Of a stretch of 64,000 bases of DNA, positions 28,498-47,842 are shown in pieces. Position numbers and translations under genes: made by a program. Below the pieces are notes generated by a model. That model was not told where the DNA came from. It worked only from the letters and a program-made list of their open reading frames with translations, and did no database searches. The stretch's first letter is position 1. Every line of letters starts with the position of its first letter. The DNA is from an uncultured virus (IMG/VR IMGVR_UViG_2806310790_000002) (lineage: Duplodnaviria; Heunggongvirae; Uroviricota; Caudoviricetes). The stretch lies in IMG/VR virus record IMGVR_UViG_2806310790_000002; one strand, given 5' to 3'.

Positions 28498-28600
28498 ACA
28501 TTTAAAACATCCTTAAAAGTTTATTTCTTTATATTTAATTTTGTTTGTATTGATGTATAAAGTATATTTGTACATATATATAAATACACAACTTAGAGCA

Positions 28601-29722
28601 ATGGATTTTAAAGACAAAATTATGCAGCTATCCGATAATATAAAAAAGCAAAAGGATAGGATAGCAACAGAAGAAGCAACTAAAAATGCTTTCATAATGC
28701 CAATGATAGCAGCTTTGGGGTATGATGTATTCAATCCATTCGAGGTAATCCCTGAAATGGATTGTGATCTTATAAGAAAGAAAGGAGAAAAGATTGATTA
28801 TGCTATTATGAGAGAAGATGTTCCGATTCTTCTTATTGAGTGTAAACATTGCAAACAGGATTTGAATTTGCATGATACCCAATTACAAAAGTATTTCGTT
28901 GCATCGAACGCACGTTTTGGAGTTTTGACAAACGGTATTGTCTATAAGTTTTATACAGACTTGGAGAAACCCAATATAATGGATACTAAACCATTTCTGT
29001 CAATAAATATGTTAGACTTATCTGATTCAGACATAGAACAGCTCAAAAAGTTCCACAAGTCATATTACAACGAAGAAAATGTATTAGGAACCGCCAATGA
29101 ATTAAAATACACAACAGAGATAAAGGAAATTTTCAACAATGAACTTCAATCACCTACATCTGATTTTATTAGATTCTTTGCAAAACAAATATACACAACC
29201 GGGCAAATAACACAAAAGGTAGTTGAAATGTTCAACCCACTTGTGAAAAAGTCAATGTCTATGGTAATAAATGATATCATAGCTGAAAGGCTTAATACAG
29301 CAATGAAAAATGAGAACCAGGTCGAAGACATTACTAATCCTTCTAGTAATTTACCTAATTCCTCCAAAGAAAATGCAGACAGCAAACTACCTGACGGAGT
29401 AGTTTATATGGACAAGGAAACAGGGATTGTCACCACGCAAGAAGAAATGGACGCTTATAATATTGTGAGAAGCATACTTAGGCGTAGTGTAGATGCTTCA
29501 CGGATTACATATAAAGACTATAAGACTTATTTCGTTATAAGTTTAGACAACAGTCAATGGTATTGGATATGTCGTATTTCTATTGGAGCTAGAAAGAAGC
29601 AAATTGGAATACCAGTAGATAACTATAAAAGTTGCGAATGGATTCAAATTGATAATATAGATGATATATTTAAATATGCAGATAAACTAGAAGGGTCACT
29701 TAAAATGGCAATGAAAGAATAA
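28601..29722 (+). CDS. Stand-alone type I restriction enzyme HsdR N-terminal-like PD-(D/E)xK nuclease (moron)
   Basis: TEEATKNAFIMP..LGYDVFNP.EV.PE, KIDYAI, LIECK, QLQKYF, GVLTNG motifs; no helicase domain. Confidence 0.85.
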   Translation: MDFKDKIMQLSDNIKKQKDRIATEEATKNAFIMPMIAALGYDVFNPFEVIPEMDCDLIRKKGEKIDYAIMREDVPILLIECKHCKQDLNLHDTQLQKYFVASNARFGVLTNGIVYKFYTDLEKPNIMDTKPFLSINMLDLSDSDIEQLKKFHKSYYNEENVLGTANELKYTTEIKEIFNNELQSPTSDFIRFFAKQIYTTGQITQKVVEMFNPLVKKSMSMVINDIIAERLNTAMKNENQVEDITNPSSNLPNSSKENADSKLPDGVVYMDKETGIVTTQEEMDAYNIVRSILRRSVDASRITYKDYKTYFVISLDNSQWYWICRISIGARKKQIGIPVDNYKSCEWIQIDNIDDIFKYADKLEGSLKMAMKE

Positions 29723-29735
29723 TAACCAACAAATT

Positions 29736-30605
29736 ATGAAGAAAATATCATTTTTTATTATAGCAATAATTCTATTAACAAATTGCAGTTCAAATGAAAG
29801 CCCTATTATATATGAACCGGAACCCCCAAAATACAATATTAATAGTACAGTTCAAGTAGGTGACATCAAACTACAATCTTATATTTTTGAAGGAGATTAT
29901 TATATAGAGGCTATTGACGAATCAGACAACAAGGCGTTTACTATCAAGGACAAAGCAGAAGGATATATAGAGGATTTAGGGTTTGGGGAGACAAAAGAGT
30001 ATCCTGTTAGAGGCTGCTATATACAAAGCACTTTGAAAAAGGATGATTATCTCTACATATTGGTCAGTTTATATGGTGACTTAATCGCTCATCCACATAA
30101 ATTTATATTAAAGATAAAGGGTGGAAAAGTGGTTAAGAAAGAATTTTTTGATAAAATGTATTATGATGGTTATGACGAAGTGCTTTTATATCCTGAAGCA
30201 ATAGCAGATTGGTATGGAGAGTATATTGCCATTTATACAACGATAAGAACCAGTAGTGATGCTATAGTTATATTAGATAAAGATTTGAAAAACGTATATG
30301 GTAGAAATTATGCCCACAATTGGACCGAATATATAGGAAAAAATAACTATATATCTTTATCTTTAAAAAATATGGTATATATATCCAATAATGAGGTTGT
30401 ATGTGTAGATGTATCAAAATATTCGTATAAAGACTATCTGTTATGGCACACCCCTATCACCGATGAAGAAATAAGAGTAGACAAGACCTCATATTCGTTG
30501 GAAGGAGACAACGTAATAGTAGACGTTGAAGCAACCACTAAGGCAGGAGAAAAAAAGAAATATCATCTGGCCTTGAATAAGGAAACTGGGAGAATTGCAT
30601 TCTAA
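29736..30605 (+). CDS. Lipoprotein (moron; possible superinfection exclusion)
   Basis: Signal peptide MKKISFFIIAIILLTN-C with lipobox cysteine; beta-rich body. Confidence 0.75.
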   Translation: MKKISFFIIAIILLTNCSSNESPIIYEPEPPKYNINSTVQVGDIKLQSYIFEGDYYIEAIDESDNKAFTIKDKAEGYIEDLGFGETKEYPVRGCYIQSTLKKDDYLYILVSLYGDLIAHPHKFILKIKGGKVVKKEFFDKMYYDGYDEVLLYPEAIADWYGEYIAIYTTIRTSSDAIVILDKDLKNVYGRNYAHNWTEYIGKNNYISLSLKNMVYISNNEVVCVDVSKYSYKDYLLWHTPITDEEIRVDKTSYSLEGDNVIVDVEATTKAGEKKKYHLALNKETGRIAF

Positions 30606-30678: not shown

Positions 30679-30713
30679 ATCCCCAATTTCTAATATTATT
30701 CTATTTGTCGTAT

Positions 30714-31430
30714 TTAGTCCCATTTCATAGCCTTAATTTTTGCCATATTTTTCGGATCGTCCGCATTGACAAATGTCCTATCATCAGAAATACGGGCTTC
30801 TTTCTTTTCTTCATCAGTAAGATATACGGAAGTAATAGCATCTGCCATCAACATTTGAAGGAGTGAAAAACTAATTTCCCATACAATCTGCTGTGGAGTC
30901 ATATTGAGTTTTTCACATGCCGGTAATATCAAAGAACCAAATACGCTTTTACCGCCAAAAGTGATAGAATTGCCTTTCTTGTTTTTTATCATTGAAACTT
31001 TAGCTAGCTCTTTACGTTCCCGATCAATCCCGAAATATTTGATAAAATCATCCGTATTATCTTTAGTAATAACCATAACAAGAAGTTGAGCCATTTCTTC
31101 ATTTGAAAGATTTTTCCTCAAGAACTGACATCTGCCATTTACAATTCTATTATTAAAAAGTTCTTCTTTCTTGTTGAGCGTGTGATAAGATAGTAGTCGG
31201 CAAACAATATCTTTTTTTTCTTGGCATAATCTTAATGCCTCCATATATGGGTTTGATTTAATAATATCAGTATTCATATCAAGGCTTTCTATAAGTCTTG
31301 ATAGCAGATATGTCTTACCTAGCGTTATTGGATATAAATAAAAATGCCGTTTATTAACCCGAAAACCGTATGGCCTTTCCATTATGGTATCCGCAATATT
31401 CATTTCTATTATTTTCTTATCTTCAACCAT
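30714..31430 (-). CDS. Probable tail assembly chaperone
   Basis: Position between major tail and tape measure genes. Confidence 0.6.
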   Translation of the reverse strand: MVEDKKIIEMNIADTIMERPYGFRVNKRHFYLYPITLGKTYLLSRLIESLDMNTDIIKSNPYMEALRLCQEKKDIVCRLLSYHTLNKKEELFNNRIVNGRCQFLRKNLSNEEMAQLLVMVITKDNTDDFIKYFGIDRERKELAKVSMIKNKKGNSITFGGKSVFGSLILPACEKLNMTPQQIVWEISFSLLQMLMADAITSVYLTDEEKKEARISDDRTFVNADDPKNMAKIKAMKWD

Positions 31431-31507
31431 ATTTGATTATTTTAAAACGAACAGGCTATCTTCACAGATAGCCAATTCAAAACATGACAACAAACCAAAT
31501 TCATTAG

Positions 31508-31579
31508 AGCGGACTAGTGGAACTGCACCACTCCCTTCGCTCAGGTAGAACGACGCACGTCTATGTGTGCTTAATCCGC
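31508..31579 (-). tRNA. Non-canonical tRNA-Gly-like cloverleaf, anticodon ACC
   Basis: GCGGATT-AA-GCAC-ACATAGAC-GTGC-G-TCGTT-CTACCTG-AGCGA-AGGG-AGTGG-TGCAGTT-CCACT-AGTCCGC-T; all four stems pair; Gly identity elements (G1:C72, C2:G71, G3:C70, U73, C35C36); lacks U8, D-loop GG and TTC. Confidence 0.75.
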
Positions 31580-31630
31580 AAATGTGCATCTATAAAGCTG
31601 ATGCACTGAGCCTTTTTACTTTATTAGAAA

Positions 31631-32176
31631 TTATACCATTGAATTAGGGGCGACTTCAAACTTATCTCCATCACCTTCTTCGTTATCCGGATCGCATTCA
31701 ATTTTTGTAATAGGAGATCCAGTTGTAGGAGTAACAATAATTTTACCCCATTGGACTTGATTCTTATTAGCAGCAGATTTTAAAGCGTCAAATGTATATG
31801 CCCACACACCACCATCTGCACTAGTAAATGTGTCTTCAACTGATACAGTTGTCTTTTCCATACAAAATCCAGGAACTTCAGGATCTTCCGGTTGTAACGC
31901 AATAGCATAATTGTGAGTGACTACGCCATCACTATCGCTGATAGGTCTTTTGCGCCCCTTTGCTGCACGTATGTTGAGTACAAGAGCATAGGTATTTTTG
32001 CCATATTTGACATCTTCGTTTTCTCCGCCTTCAATTTTGGCTTCTTGCTTATCGCCTTTTGTTGTTGTCAACTGTGTGGAATTTTCCACTGGTGTAGGAA
32101 GTTCTTCCCACTTAGGAGAGGAAGCATCCAAGTCTTTTACGAAAATCCGGGGTTTTCCCCAGCCGATTACTGCCAT
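31631..32176 (-). CDS. Major tail (tube) protein
   Basis: MAVIGWGKP start; position after the tail terminator gene. Confidence 0.75.
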   Translation of the reverse strand: MAVIGWGKPRIFVKDLDASSPKWEELPTPVENSTQLTTTKGDKQEAKIEGGENEDVKYGKNTYALVLNIRAAKGRKRPISDSDGVVTHNYAIALQPEDPEVPGFCMEKTTVSVEDTFTSADGGVWAYTFDALKSAANKNQVQWGKIIVTPTTGSPITKIECDPDNEEGDGDKFEVAPNSMV

Positions 32177-32205
32177 AGTTCTATATCACTTAATATAGTT
32201 AATAC

Positions 32206-44514: not shown

Positions 44515-45279
44515 TTACACCTCCTTGTCTTTCATTTCTTGCAAATAAGCTTTGCATATATCAACCATACGAGCAAAAGCAACAGTATTACTCTTTATAT
44601 TAAATTTCTTCTTTACTTCTGTAGCTACCTTTATAAATTCTTCATAAGAACCTACAACTATCGAACTATTTGCAGATATTTTCTGTTTTTCAAGTTCAGC
44701 TAGAACAGCTTTGACATCATTACTCCTGCTTTCAGTAAACAAGAACTTCATTTCCGTAAGCTCTATATCCCCATCATTAATAGAAACGGTAGGAATCTTA
44801 TCTGTATCAATAAATTGAATACCGTTAAGGCCAGAAAACTCTCTTGCTTCAATAGTGCGCATCTCGCTATAAATTTCCTTAAGCATTTGAGCATCATCTT
44901 TGCCTACTAAAGCATTATGACTAAGCACATAGGCAATCTGTTTGTCTTTATCAACCTCTTCAATATACAAGATTAGAATATATTCCAGCTTAGCTTTAAT
45001 AGCAGCTTTTAAACGATGATTTCCCGACAAAATAAGATATTTCCCATCATCTCGTTTCATTGCGAACGGAAGCTGAGATAAAAAACCGTCTTCAGCCACA
45101 TTTGCTGTTAGTCTATCCAGTGTGGATTTTTCCATATAGTGAGCATTCTTCTCCAACGGAATGCAATCATCTATAGGGCTTACATATGCTAACTTATACG
45201 GAGCAATCAATTTGTTTACATCATCCAGTTTCCCCTGAATAAGATGAACATCTTTCACTTCTTGTATTTTTTCAACCAT
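44515..45279 (-). CDS. ParB-like N-terminal domain protein
   Basis: KNAHYM..LTANVAEDG..YLILSGNHRLKAA..LSHNALVGKDD. Confidence 0.85.
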   Translation of the reverse strand: MVEKIQEVKDVHLIQGKLDDVNKLIAPYKLAYVSPIDDCIPLEKNAHYMEKSTLDRLTANVAEDGFLSQLPFAMKRDDGKYLILSGNHRLKAAIKAKLEYILILYIEEVDKDKQIAYVLSHNALVGKDDAQMLKEIYSEMRTIEAREFSGLNGIQFIDTDKIPTVSINDGDIELTEMKFLFTESRSNDVKAVLAELEKQKISANSSIVVGSYEEFIKVATEVKKKFNIKSNTVAFARMVDICKAYLQEMKDKEV

Positions 45280-46556
45280 AATCTATATAAATCCTTTAAT
45301 GAATCATCTAAAAAACTAGCAGAATACATTAGTTTGCCTTCATCTCTCCTGTCAAGATTGAATACACTGCGGTATTTCATACTTACTGGTGAAGATGTAT
45401 ACACAGTTGTCTTAATCCCTTCATAATAGTGACCCATTTTTCTTGCAATGAGCATCCTCACATCGTGGGACTTAGTAAGCATAATCAGCAATTTACTAAG
45501 CCTCTGTGTATTTGAGTTTACAACAAAATCACTCTGCATAAATATCTTCTCAAGTGTAGATAACTGTTTGATGAAAGAAGTAAATCCAAACGCTTTACCG
45601 TCAGCCATAAATACCATACCTAAATCTCCACCAGTTGTATAATTAACCTTGTTTGCCATGTAAAACGCTTTATAATAATTCACATCACTAACCGGACATA
45701 ATTTTGCAGATATTACCGTATTATCTGTAAATTCATAATCTATTGGTAAAATATGAGTATATGATGACTTTACATTTTTATCACGTTCAATGTAATAATG
45801 CTTATTTTGATTTACGCTAGAGTAAGTGTATATAGGATTCTTGCCTGGCCCCAAGTTTATTTTGCCAACAAGGAAGTTGTCTATCTCCTTGAAATATCTA
45901 TCAGAATAGATGATGTTTTCATCATTCTCAAGGAGGTTCTTGAATATATTTCCACCCTCTTTGGGATCAAAGACATTATAAGTAGCACGCATATAATTAA
46001 AGCTTTCTTCGACATAGCTAAACATCTTCTCATACCCTCCTTTATACGTAGGAGGAAAGCTTATACCAACACCTTTACCTTTTTTGCTTTTTAGGAAGTC
46101 AAAAAAATCACCATAGAAGAAACTCTTAATATTAAAATTAAGTGCGCCTTTTTCAATCTTAGATATAGTATTATGATAATAAACTTTTGATTGCTCAATA
46201 AAAGCGTTAAACATTTCTTCTTGGTAATCGTTTTTCCTTTGGTGAAAGTTCGACACTCTCATTGCAAACATTACTTGAATAAGCTTTTTGTATTTAGTGT
46301 CATCCCATGTGTCAAAAACCATACGTAATTCAGGATTCACAACTTCAATATCAGTATTTGTATCAAGTAATAGATCAGAAATTAGTTTGGAATATAGACT
46401 TACATCATTAGAATGTACTGTGTATCCCATACTACTCATAATTTTATCTGTTGTAAAATTACCAGAGCACCCGATGAAAACATCTTTATTTTCAACTCCT
46501 TTCATTAAGTCTTGGAGGAGAATCTTTACTTCTGGAGGTGTTGTTCCCTGAAACAT
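45255..46556 (-). CDS. Dam-like adenine methyltransferase domain fused to a Mom-like GNAT domain
   Basis: N-half VFIGCSGNFT (motif I), VHSNDVS, YGDFFDFL, FPPTY (divergent motif IV); C-half MVFMADGKAFGF..SDFVV..RLSKLL..IKTTVY..SMKYR follows the GNAT/Mom strand-helix order. Confidence 0.65.
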   Translation of the reverse strand: MFQGTTPPEVKILLQDLMKGVENKDVFIGCSGNFTTDKIMSSMGYTVHSNDVSLYSKLISDLLLDTNTDIEVVNPELRMVFDTWDDTKYKKLIQVMFAMRVSNFHQRKNDYQEEMFNAFIEQSKVYYHNTISKIEKGALNFNIKSFFYGDFFDFLKSKKGKGVGISFPPTYKGGYEKMFSYVEESFNYMRATYNVFDPKEGGNIFKNLLENDENIIYSDRYFKEIDNFLVGKINLGPGKNPIYTYSSVNQNKHYYIERDKNVKSSYTHILPIDYEFTDNTVISAKLCPVSDVNYYKAFYMANKVNYTTGGDLGMVFMADGKAFGFTSFIKQLSTLEKIFMQSDFVVNSNTQRLSKLLIMLTKSHDVRMLIARKMGHYYEGIKTTVYTSSPVSMKYRSVFNLDRRDEGKLMYSASFLDDSLKDLYRLWLKKYKK

Positions 46557-46763: not shown

Positions 46764-46790
46764 TTTTGCTTATCTCTACTATAAGGGTTG

Positions 46791-46979
46791 AGGGATAAGT
46801 AGGAGTCGAACCTACACAAGTATCGTCTGCTTTCTCGCTTTCGTCCGTAGATTGGTTATCCTACGATTCTTAAACTACTCAACCTGTTACTAACAGCACC
46901 GGTCTTGATGACATCCATTCTTATGTACACTTAGAATTTCCGTTCATTTAATCTTAGCGCCCTATGATCATTTTATCCC
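46791..46979 (-). ncRNA. 189-nt tRNA-like RNA with a large internal insert
   Basis: Acceptor GGGATAA/TTATCCC + T, perfect T-arm GTAGG-TTCGACT-CCTAC, D-like arm TGATC/GATTA; ~130 nt with several hairpins replaces the anticodon/variable region. Confidence 0.7.
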
Positions 46980-46983
46980 TACG

Positions 46984-47105
46984 TGGTGGTAGCAGGACTT
47001 GAACCTGCAATGATAGGTTTAGCGACTGAGCTGTTGTTAGCTTCCTCAGCGTCCTATTCAGTACTATCTACCGCAATGTATCGTTTACCATTCCGACATA
47101 CCACC
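46984..47105 (-). tRNA. 122-nt class II-like tRNA-like RNA, anticodon unassignable
   Basis: Acceptor GGTGGTA/TACCACC + A, D-arm TCG-GAATGGTAAA-CGA, T-arm GCAGG-TTCAAGT-CCTGC; weak anticodon stem; ~50-nt hairpin variable arm. Confidence 0.7.
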
Positions 47106-47220
47106 AAATTTGCGTGTCTTTCCACGCTGTCAGATTTGCAGCTACCGGCTAAATACATGGAGTTGAACCATATGCAATTTACCATAATCTCAATCACCGA
47201 GCCGACTTGAACGGCATTAG

Positions 47221-47290
47221 AGCGGAAACAGGGAATCGAACCCCACTCTTTGGCTGGAATGCCAACGCTCTACCGATGAGCTATTTCCGC
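47221..47290 (-). tRNA. tRNA-Gly(TCC)-like gene with a 6-nt anticodon loop
   Basis: GCGGAAA-TA-GCTC-ATCGGTA-GAGC-G-TTGGC-ATTCCA-GCCAA-AGAG-TGGGG-TTCGATT-CCCTG-TTTCCGC-T; no encoded CCA. Confidence 0.8.
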
Positions 47291-47376: not shown

Positions 47377-47781
47377 TTAAAACAAACTAGCTTGTTCGTA
47401 CTTAGGCTCTTTCTTCTCAACTACCCCAAACTCCGTTATTTTAATGCCAGTATTTTCAGTAAGCCATTTTGCCAAAATATGACGATGGCAAAAATCACCC
47501 GGTTTTTCGTAACAGCAGAGAGCGACATCTTTACCTTCACTTAACGATTCTATTTGTTCGATTACCTTATAAGCATCTTGATTTGCAAGAATCTCATCAT
47601 AAAGTCTAAGATACTCATCATGAGAACATGCAGCACTTATCATATACCTTGTTGGAGCCACATTAACCATTTGTGGTACTCCACTAATAAATCTTGGCCT
47701 TCCAATAGCTACGCAAATAATTTTAACTCCTGCCTCTTTCAATTTTCGGTTATTACCGAAATAACTTGTGTAAATTTTCAT
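47377..47781 (-). CDS. DUF488-family protein; likely start MKIYTSYF
   Basis: IYTSYF, VAPT, ALCCYEKPGDFCHRHILAKWL motifs. Confidence 0.8.
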   Translation of the reverse strand: MKIYTSYFGNNRKLKEAGVKIICVAIGRPRFISGVPQMVNVAPTRYMISAACSHDEYLRLYDEILANQDAYKVIEQIESLSEGKDVALCCYEKPGDFCHRHILAKWLTENTGIKITEFGVVEKKEPKYEQASLF

Positions 47782-47805
47782 TGCTCTTTTTTTATTTTTA
47801 TGGTG

Positions 47806-47842
47806 TAAAGATACAAAATATGACATAAAAAGCGTCACTTTT
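47806..47842 (-). promoter_or_regulatory. Promoter -7-like box TATCTTTA plus palindromic operator (copy 5)
   Basis: aaatatgac-N9-gtcactttt; heads the DUF488 / tRNA-like / MTase / terminase unit. Confidence 0.7.

Follow-up and report, generated by a model that had tools for sequence, protein, structure and literature searches.

A conserved tRNA-Gly-derived cloverleaf behind a hairpin in the tail operon of an uncultured prophage, a possible non-decoding processing mark

The transfer RNA (tRNA) genes of phages are commonly interpreted as codon supplements or as nuclease countermeasures, and the question raised by the locus described here is which role is left to a tRNA-shaped RNA that seems unable to decode. 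The locus lies within the 64,000 nucleotides (nt) of the uncultured Caudoviricetes record IMGVR_UViG_2806310790_000002, a whole stretch which is referred to below as the window and which is a prophage in a genome with 41.9% G+C content and the transfer-messenger RNA (tmRNA) tag GETNYALAA, a tag that we take to be typical of Bacteroidota. A first-pass annotation, made from the letters of the window, had noticed a fully paired 72-nt cloverleaf between the major tail and chaperone genes and had proposed that it may be charged with glycine and carry it outside ribosomal use, or may act as a decoy against anticodon nucleases. The cloverleaf is indeed found there, on the minus strand and between the probable tail tube and chaperone genes, with 21 of 21 pairs formed, and it is a genuine, conserved tRNA-Gly-derived structure. 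As to its role, the reading favoured here, tentatively and in the knowledge that it may well prove wrong, is that of a non-decoding, tRNA-like mark for processing by RNase P and RNase Z, which would leave the tail-gene messenger RNA (mRNA) capped by a hairpin and would serve gene dosage in the tail operon.

31508-31579, minus strand: tRNA-Gly(ACC)-like cloverleaf of 72 nt, type A1 (31508 is the discriminator U73, 31507 is C74)

On the minus strand the element reads, from 5' to 3', GCGGAUU AA GCAC ACAUAGAC GUGC G UCGUU CUACCUG AGCGA AGGG AGUGG UGCAGUU CCACU AGUCCGC U, with stems of 7, 4, 5 and 5 base pairs (bp) and standard spacers. It was expected to be missed by standard tRNA finders, and this is what was found: ARAGORN at default leaves it uncalled, the sole call in the window being a tRNA at 47220-47290, and Rfam gives no match to it, including RF00005, even at E<=10. 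When the threshold is relaxed to 90% (-ps90), as had been proposed as a check, ARAGORN calls tRNA-Gly(acc) at c[31507,31579], the sole additional call in the window. A perfect-cloverleaf rule (7/4/5/5 stems, G-U allowed, D loop of 6-11 nt, variable loop of 4-5 nt) applied to both strands of the 4.57-megabase genome returned 46 sites, that is, the element and 45 of the 71 ARAGORN tRNAs of this genome, while five locally shuffled genomes, serving as chance control, returned 0, 1, 0, 0 and 1 perfect cloverleaves. The minimum free energy (MFE) fold of the element (-27.9 kcal/mol, z -3.0) retains the acceptor, D and anticodon arms, with C32:G38 closed and a 5-nt loop left, and draws the T region otherwise, for which reason the canonical T arm rests on covariation.

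The canonical tertiary nucleotides of tRNA are U8, G18-G19, U54-U55-C56 and A58, a set from which the window copy departs by having A8 in place of U8, a D loop (ACAUAGAC) without GG, and U54-G55-C56 together with G58 in its T loop. Its anticodon loop, CUACCUG, carries the anticodon ACC and U33 as well as U37 and a pairable C32:G38, and falls outside the decoding type of loop (7 nt, U33, purine at 37, 32:38 not Watson-Crick). The departures from ordinary decoding that the first-pass annotation had read in the sequence are confirmed, and the same is true for the identity elements of glycyl-tRNA synthetase (GlyRS) which it had listed as kept: by sequence the set is complete, with G1:C72, C2:G71, G3:C70, U73, C35 and C36, where G3:C70 is presumably an identity pair, taken over from that list. 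For Staphylococcus aureus GlyRS, a published report names as determinants G1:C72, the 2:71 pair (printed as C2-G70), U73, C35 and C36 (PMC7826273).

Relatives of the locus were gathered through the 181-amino-acid (aa) protein encoded upstream of the element, whereby 180 relatives were identified in viral contigs, the best 80 of which were kept, and a second set was obtained via a more distant query; both sets together amount to 159 loci, with some contigs occurring twice. At the nucleotide level, megablast of 30700-32200 against the phage collection found nothing, and the 200-nt intergenic region, in a family-wide search of 301 genomes, matched only the window's own genome plus one stretch of 27 nt. 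A scan of genome contigs yielded one distant relative, which has no tRNA. Among the best 80 of the 180 relatives, hairpin and tRNA-like occupy the same place in 80 of 80 loci, 38 being of type A (a BLAST match to the intergenic region of the window, ARAGORN silent) and 42 being called by ARAGORN, 41 as tRNA-Gly(tcc) and one as tRNA-Gly(acc). For metagenome loci, ARAGORN calls tRNA-Gly in 17 of 19. Within the pooled loci a tRNA-like of the form GCG...CGCU is present at the tail/chaperone junction in 156 of 159 and is represented by 22 distinct sequences, which comprise types A1-A3 with degenerate D and T loops, types B, C and D with canonical GG and UUCG or UUCA T loops, and the singletons E (L163) and F (L161); the sister types A2 and A3 retain the GG of the D loop.

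Covariation among homologs was another check that had been proposed, and compensatory changes were found. Placed on the cloverleaf, the 22 distinct sequences have 97.7% of their cells paired, as compared to 75.2% after shuffling and 27-54% when the sequences are slid; 15 of 22 pairs are changed on both sides, the covariation score amounts to 0.693 versus 0.253 in shuffles (0 of 500 reach the observed value), and every arm of the cloverleaf is supported by covariation. For type A alone, 99.4% of cells are paired (1 of 176 is unpaired), with compensation in two T-stem pairs, one going from G:C to A:U and the other from A:U to G:C, while wobble pairing is preserved in three other changes. Between type-A lineages the element diverges by 14-17% and without indels, as compared to 10-13% for the flanking coding DNA and to 36-78%, indels included, for the adjacent unstructured spacers. 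The pairing of type A and its low, indel-free divergence argue for selection on the fold of the degenerate copy and against a decaying pseudogene.

Invariant across the 22 sequences are C2, G3, A5, G10, G53 (column 52), U54 (column 53), C61 (column 60) and U73, while G1:C72 is found in 21 of them (one has G1:U72), acceptor pairs 4-7 covary, and C35 together with C36 is retained in 21. The remainder of the anticodon loop is variable: U33 is present in 11 of 22 (with A33 in type B and some of type D, and C33 in type C), the wobble base 34 is U or A, and position 37 is A, U or G. Positions 32 and 38 are pairable in all 22 (CG 16, AU 5, UG 1), and lineages E and F possess 6-nt anticodon loops, that of lineage F being without CC. 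Glycine codon use is the same in the phage (late genes) and the host and does not track the switch between U34 and A34, and codon compensation was rejected as an explanation on these grounds. Judged by its loops, the element family looks unfit for codon reading and would no longer work as a decoder.

Four features adjoin the element.

31631-32176, minus strand: 181-aa gene, probable major tail (tube) protein, from its position and ESM Atlas neighbours
31584-31606, minus strand: hairpin 1, read from the sequence, with a stem of 7 bp, a loop of 9 nt and AUUU (31580-31583) as the 4-nt spacer behind it
31441-31473, minus strand: hairpin 2 with a U-rich run, terminator-like, stem-loop GGCUAUCU-GUGA-AGAUAGCC at 31454-31473
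30714-31430, minus strand: 238-aa gene, probable tail assembly chaperone, from an all-helical model and weak BFVD matches

In transcript order, the stop codon of the 181-aa gene is followed by hairpin 1, AUUU, the cloverleaf, about 34 nt, hairpin 2 and the start of the 238-aa gene. The 45 nt upstream of the element fold into hairpin 1 (-9.9 kcal/mol), which leaves the 4-nt spacer, and when the corresponding 45 nt were folded for 12 lineages a hairpin was found to terminate 0-6 nt 5' of the tRNA-like in 12 of 12, its energy lying between -8.6 and -15.9 kcal/mol and its z-score between -1.2 and -4.7. Hairpin 2 is kept in types A, B and D and is missing from type C; in one locus (L010, 3204-3228) its loop is inverted, being UCAC instead of GUGA, and its stem is intact.

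More distant phages, with a tail protein 42-65% identical to the relative used as query, revealed what else may stand at this junction. A plain terminator-like hairpin is found in L160, L164/165, L394, L473 and L474, and a hairpin without U run in L162. Other members, with tail proteins 42-58% identical to the L161/L399 query proteins, carry tRNA-likes of a different kind, all of which have a faulty anticodon domain: in L454 a tRNA-Arg(tct) is called, with C33 and C37; in L401 a tRNA-??? (tg) is called, its discriminator being C and its 6-nt loop UAUGCG; L399 has an acceptor, a canonical D arm and a T arm but no anticodon arm; and in L396 only acceptor and T arm are recognisable, behind a full terminator. 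An acceptor plus T-arm module is found at the junction between cistrons, and in distant relatives acceptor and T arm stay even without the anticodon arm. The presence of non-Gly or armless tRNA-likes at the same spot argues for a role that is independent of glycine, and the fixed layout of hairpin, spacer and tRNA, the exchangeable identity of the tRNA and the alternation with plain terminators point to the processing-mark reading. As far as sequence comparison can tell, the site would matter more than glycine identity.

RNA evidence was drawn from contigs of four metatranscriptome runs of one study. Long contigs from X1 and X2 (depth 68.5 and 37.7) span the head-to-tail genes and end at 31610, and an X3 contig (depth 22.7) reaches from the tail gene across hairpin 1 into the element, ending at its position 47 (31533). 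Downstream, across 30700-31530, RNA contig depth is 0-7, and the fall across the site is at least 10-fold; runs X5-X10 contain small shares only and stand outside the contig-depth comparison. These contigs fit a strong 3' boundary at the hairpin and tRNA-like together with at least some co-transcription into the element.

The processing-mark reading assumes that the element descended from a phage tRNA-Gly gene, lost decoding and was kept as a folded 'punctuation mark' in the late tail transcript. Initially, the element would be co-transcribed with the major tail gene. Next, RNase P would cut at its 5' end, 4 nt past hairpin 1, whereby the tail-gene mRNA would come to terminate in a protective hairpin that may stabilise it. 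Subsequently, RNase Z or a similar enzyme would release the 3' end of the element, and the downstream message for chaperone and tape measure would be left separate and less abundant. If late transcription is antiterminated, we infer that a cut beside a hairpin would achieve what a terminator cannot. The released RNA may still be glycylated, and the processing-mark reading is independent of that.

Several points weigh against this assumed mechanism. RNase P and RNase Z require just the acceptor and T arms, whereas compensatory changes preserve the D and anticodon stems as well, and a pure cis role accounts less well than selection for recognition by GlyRS for the presence of C35 and C36 in 21 of 22 sequences and for near-invariant G1-C2-G3 and U73. 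The informative distant records L399, L401, L396 and L454 are single records each, and close relatives of the armless L399 element were found neither in viral nor in metagenome contigs. Several of the upstream hairpins have weak z-scores of -1.2 to -1.8. As to the RNA contigs, their ends and strand are unreadable and DNA carry-over is possible, and termination at hairpin 1 alone would yield an identical drop in depth. In lineages A-E the maintained D and anticodon stems, combined with the GlyRS identity set, leave room for a trans role as a glycylated non-ribosomal tRNA.

This trans role is the alternative that survives best, although it is considered unlikely. Here the excised element would receive a CCA tail and be charged with glycine by the GlyRS of the host, an enzyme of the dimeric type; its closed anticodon loop and its weakened elbow would bar it from the ribosome, and it would then feed a tRNA-dependent transferase or soak up a host factor that attacks Gly-tRNA. 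The identity set that is full by sequence, the retention of C35 and C36 while positions 33, 34 and 37 vary, and the maintenance of all four arms speak in its favour. Precedents are described in two reports, since Mom of phage Mu modifies DNA using Gly-tRNAGly (PMC13219725) and staphylococcal non-proteinogenic tRNA-Gly are without G18, G19, U55 and C56 (PMC4574755). Furthermore, the same phage possesses a second odd tRNA-Gly (site 2), which is linked to a gene with a GNAT domain.

45255-46556, minus strand: 433-aa protein with DAM-like-phage1 (PF22555) and GNAT-phage-like (PF22559) domains
47221-47290, minus strand: tRNA-Gly(UCC)-like of site 2, with the 6-nt loop AUUCCA, 53 bits versus the Rfam tRNA model

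A consumer enzyme that tracks the tail-operon element was not found, however. PF22559 occurs in 40 of the 50 records, with 14 positives among the 22 that are at least 90% complete, and it is missing from 7 of 21 near-complete element-bearing relatives. The complete genome G303 has the element as its sole tRNA, and no GNAT or Mom family was found among the 59 open reading frames (ORFs) scanned in it. These seven near-complete carriers and the GNAT-less G303 imply that the tail-operon element occurs independently of the GNAT gene, and coupling of the element to the DAM-like and GNAT gene was rejected, as both G303 and G331 keep the element without GNAT. The downstream 238-aa protein is predicted to be all-helical and not GNAT-like, the CC is lost in lineage F (L161), the site is occupied by non-Gly or armless tRNA-likes in distant relatives, and the sequence of the element evolves fast when compared to the near-invariant site-2 tRNA. 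Of the carrier or decoy idea in the first-pass annotation, the identity set has stood, while a consumer enzyme was not found and the distant relatives argue for a role independent of glycine, and the idea is no longer the leading reading.

A common origin with the site-2 tRNA had been suggested from shared flanks. These are present, with CAUUU before and CUAAUG after both elements, but they are not conserved in relatives and hence provide weak evidence of a common origin; the C after U73 occurs in host tRNA-Gly genes too. A broader proposal, which is rated as improbable and a little below the trans role itself, combines the element family and the 47221-47290 tRNA-Gly to a phage pool of non-translational Gly-tRNA, used as glycine donor in DNA hypermodification or as decoy against host factors attacking Gly-tRNA; if true, this pool would be the first dedicated viral 'non-proteinogenic' tRNA.

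Clearly less probable is a working, nuclease-resistant tRNA-Gly, the altered loop of which would evade a host anticodon nuclease while still reading GGN late in infection. In its favour, the D and T loops of types B, C and D are canonical, ARAGORN recognises these types as tRNA-Gly(tcc/acc) (42 of 80 loci among the best 80 of 180, and 17 of 19 metagenome loci), the loop positions 32, 33, 34, 37 and 38 vary while C35 and C36 are fixed, and phage tRNAs with nuclease-evading mutations in the anticodon loop have been proposed (PMC10264068). Against decoding stand the lack of U33 in 11 of 22 sequences, the pairability of 32:38 throughout and the 6-nt loops of two lineages, to which the window copy adds the loss of U8, G18, U55 and A58 and the presence of U37. 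The wobble base flips between U and A among close relatives while Gly codon use is unchanged, and a term search in PMC10264068 returned no mention of tRNA-Gly, U33 or loop size. A decaying, functionless tRNA pseudogene at an intergenic spot where tRNA genes tend to land is very improbable, since the losses of U8, G18, U55 and A58 in type A, the defects of other lineages (short loops, a missing arm) and the silence of default tools are outweighed by stems kept through compensatory change (1 of 176 cells unpaired in type A), by the lack of indels with a divergence 2-5 times below that of adjacent spacers, and by the presence of a tRNA-like in 156 of 159 loci.

With respect to the neighbouring genes, the minus-strand order is terminase, portal, head protein, connectors, the 181-aa gene, the element, the 238-aa gene, two plus-strand genes and the tape measure. 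The 181-aa gene thus follows the head and connector genes and precedes the chaperone-like and tape measure genes. Its product belongs to PHROG 17745, which has no named function, its ESM Atlas neighbours are automatically named 'phage tail protein', and the nearest Pfam-bearing ESM Atlas cluster is Phage_TTP_16 at 0.92, a value to be taken as a lead only; from position and these neighbours it is probably the tail tube protein. The model of the 238-aa protein is all-helical, with a predicted local distance difference test (pLDDT) value of 74.8; neither a PDB match to the model nor a Pfam family was found, and weak BFVD matches (E 0.02-1) were obtained, many of which are tail assembly chaperone, GT or tape-measure chaperone proteins. 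On the basis of this model it is probably a tail assembly chaperone. A tRNA-dependent transferase was considered for the same protein and rejected in view of its helical model, the missing PDB match and the exclusively weak, chaperone-like BFVD matches. A programmed frameshift helper for the chaperone was dropped as well, as no overlapping minus-strand extension ORF exists behind the 238-aa gene. The plus-strand interval 28541-30605, between the chaperone-like and tape measure genes, encodes a 393-aa HSDR_N-domain endonuclease and a 289-aa ORF product without family; relatives carry other cargo at this spot, which therefore looks like a hot spot for inserted genes.

The second tRNA-like site was characterized in its own right. 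The site-2 tRNA lies upstream of the GNAT gene in 61 of 62 related loci, with its loop AUUCCA essentially invariant, and it is present in 3 of 3 GNAT-positive and in 0 of 2 GNAT-negative genomes. It is likely a dedicated glycyl donor for a Mom-like DNA modification. Membership of the GNAT protein in the Mom family itself was rejected, because it matches only PF22555 and PF22559, whereas Mu Mom matches PF25680; BLASTP of the window protein versus Mu Mom gave no similarity (E 1.7), no PDB sequence match was found, and a fold search with the GNAT domain model (pLDDT 84) returned generic GNATs only. Through the GNAT-linked 6-nt-loop tRNA-Gly, the locus can be connected, in a way open to direct testing, with the tRNA-dependent modification of DNA that was recently shown for Mom.

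Next to the site-2 tRNA, a 122-nt RNA at 46984-47105 (minus strand) scores 37.8 bits with the Rfam tRNA model and has an acceptor, a D arm, a T arm and an encoded CCA, with 64 nt replacing the anticodon arm. It is missing from relatives in which the site-2 tRNA directly precedes 'AACCCUUAUAGU', and hence looks like part of an inserted cassette. Directly behind it, a possible third tRNA-like at 46789-46980 (minus strand) is closed by a stem of 8 bp, AGGGAUAA/UUAUCCCU, which together with the T-arm-like GUAGGUUCGACUCCUAC surrounds about 150 nt; the fold z-score of this stretch is -0.3 and no Rfam match to it was found. A DUF488-N3a protein (47377-47838, minus strand) and a weakly ParB_N-like protein (44515-45279, minus strand) flank the tRNA-like array and the GNAT gene, and the whole, located just upstream of the terminase, looks like a DNA-modification island. 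In many phages of types B, C and D (L146 at 4-2031; G302, G304, G309 and others) the GNAT-phage-like domain resides within a 675-699-aa protein, which also has an Amidoligase_2 domain and a weak DAM-like match, with a ParB_N protein following it, and which represents a longer version of the 433-aa enzyme. In the GNAT-less complete relative G303 (L156, 8332-9318) there are genes for a reverse transcriptase (RVT_1) and a Dam methylase as well as two Tad2-like anti-Thoeris domains.

Several known systems invite comparison. Staphylococcal non-proteinogenic tRNA-Gly donate glycine to FmhB and Fem transferases, and the first-pass annotation had likened the element to them. The likeness is partial and lies in that glycine identity is kept and that the window copy is without the D-loop GG and U55. 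It does not extend to C56, which the element keeps, nor to the sister copies with GG and a canonical T loop. The host, by its G+C content and tmRNA tag, is not a staphylococcus, and a co-occurring Fem-type transferase partner was found neither among the ORFs of G303 nor in the near-complete relatives. The staphylococcal species, which are also without C56 (PMC4574755), interact poorly with EF-Tu and the ribosome and form a lineage found only in staphylococci (PMC7826273). In the Mu system Mom, a GNAT, moves glycine from Gly-tRNAGly onto DNA adenine, for which Mu scavenges host isoacceptors, the term 'phage-encoded tRNA' being absent from the main text of the report (PMC13219725). The present prophage resembles it by a GNAT with a DNA-adenine-methylase-like domain and an adjoining odd tRNA-Gly at site 2, and differs from it by its domains (PF22555/PF22559, not PF25680), by the reliance of Mu on host tRNAs and by the missing linkage of the tail-operon element to the GNAT gene.

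Ordinary phage tRNA genes, such as the tRNA clusters of T4 and T5, share with the element the cloverleaf in a phage genome, the derivation from tRNA-Gly and sister copies that are callable as tRNA-Gly(UCC/ACC). The element differs by the non-canonical anticodon loop found across the family, by the loss of elbow tertiary nucleotides in the window copy, by the lack of a codon-usage rationale and by its fixed place behind a hairpin in the tail operon. What this phage lineage keeps are tRNA-shaped, seemingly non-decoding RNAs, each preceded by a hairpin that follows the most abundant tail gene. A conserved structured RNA escapes default tRNA finders, and anticodon labels such as 'tRNA-Gly(ACC)' can mislead.

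To our knowledge, no tRNA-like processing mark has been reported from the structural operon of a phage, nor one with a fixed hairpin 0-6 nt upstream; a literature search on Bacteroides prophage tRNA-Gly in tail regions found nothing relevant, and RNase P processing in phage operons was outside its coverage. Established tRNA processing marks are the mitochondrial 'tRNA punctuation', the MALAT1 mascRNA and the E. coli mRNA-tRNA co-transcripts cut by RNase P. By analogy with these, the element would be a tRNA-shaped fold between cistrons, the excision of which would define the 3' end of the upstream RNA, and its anticodon domain appears dispensable, as in L399. Should RNase P and RNase Z excise the element and thereby define the 3' end of the tail mRNA, phages would tune the gene dosage of a late operon via the tRNA-processing machinery of their host.

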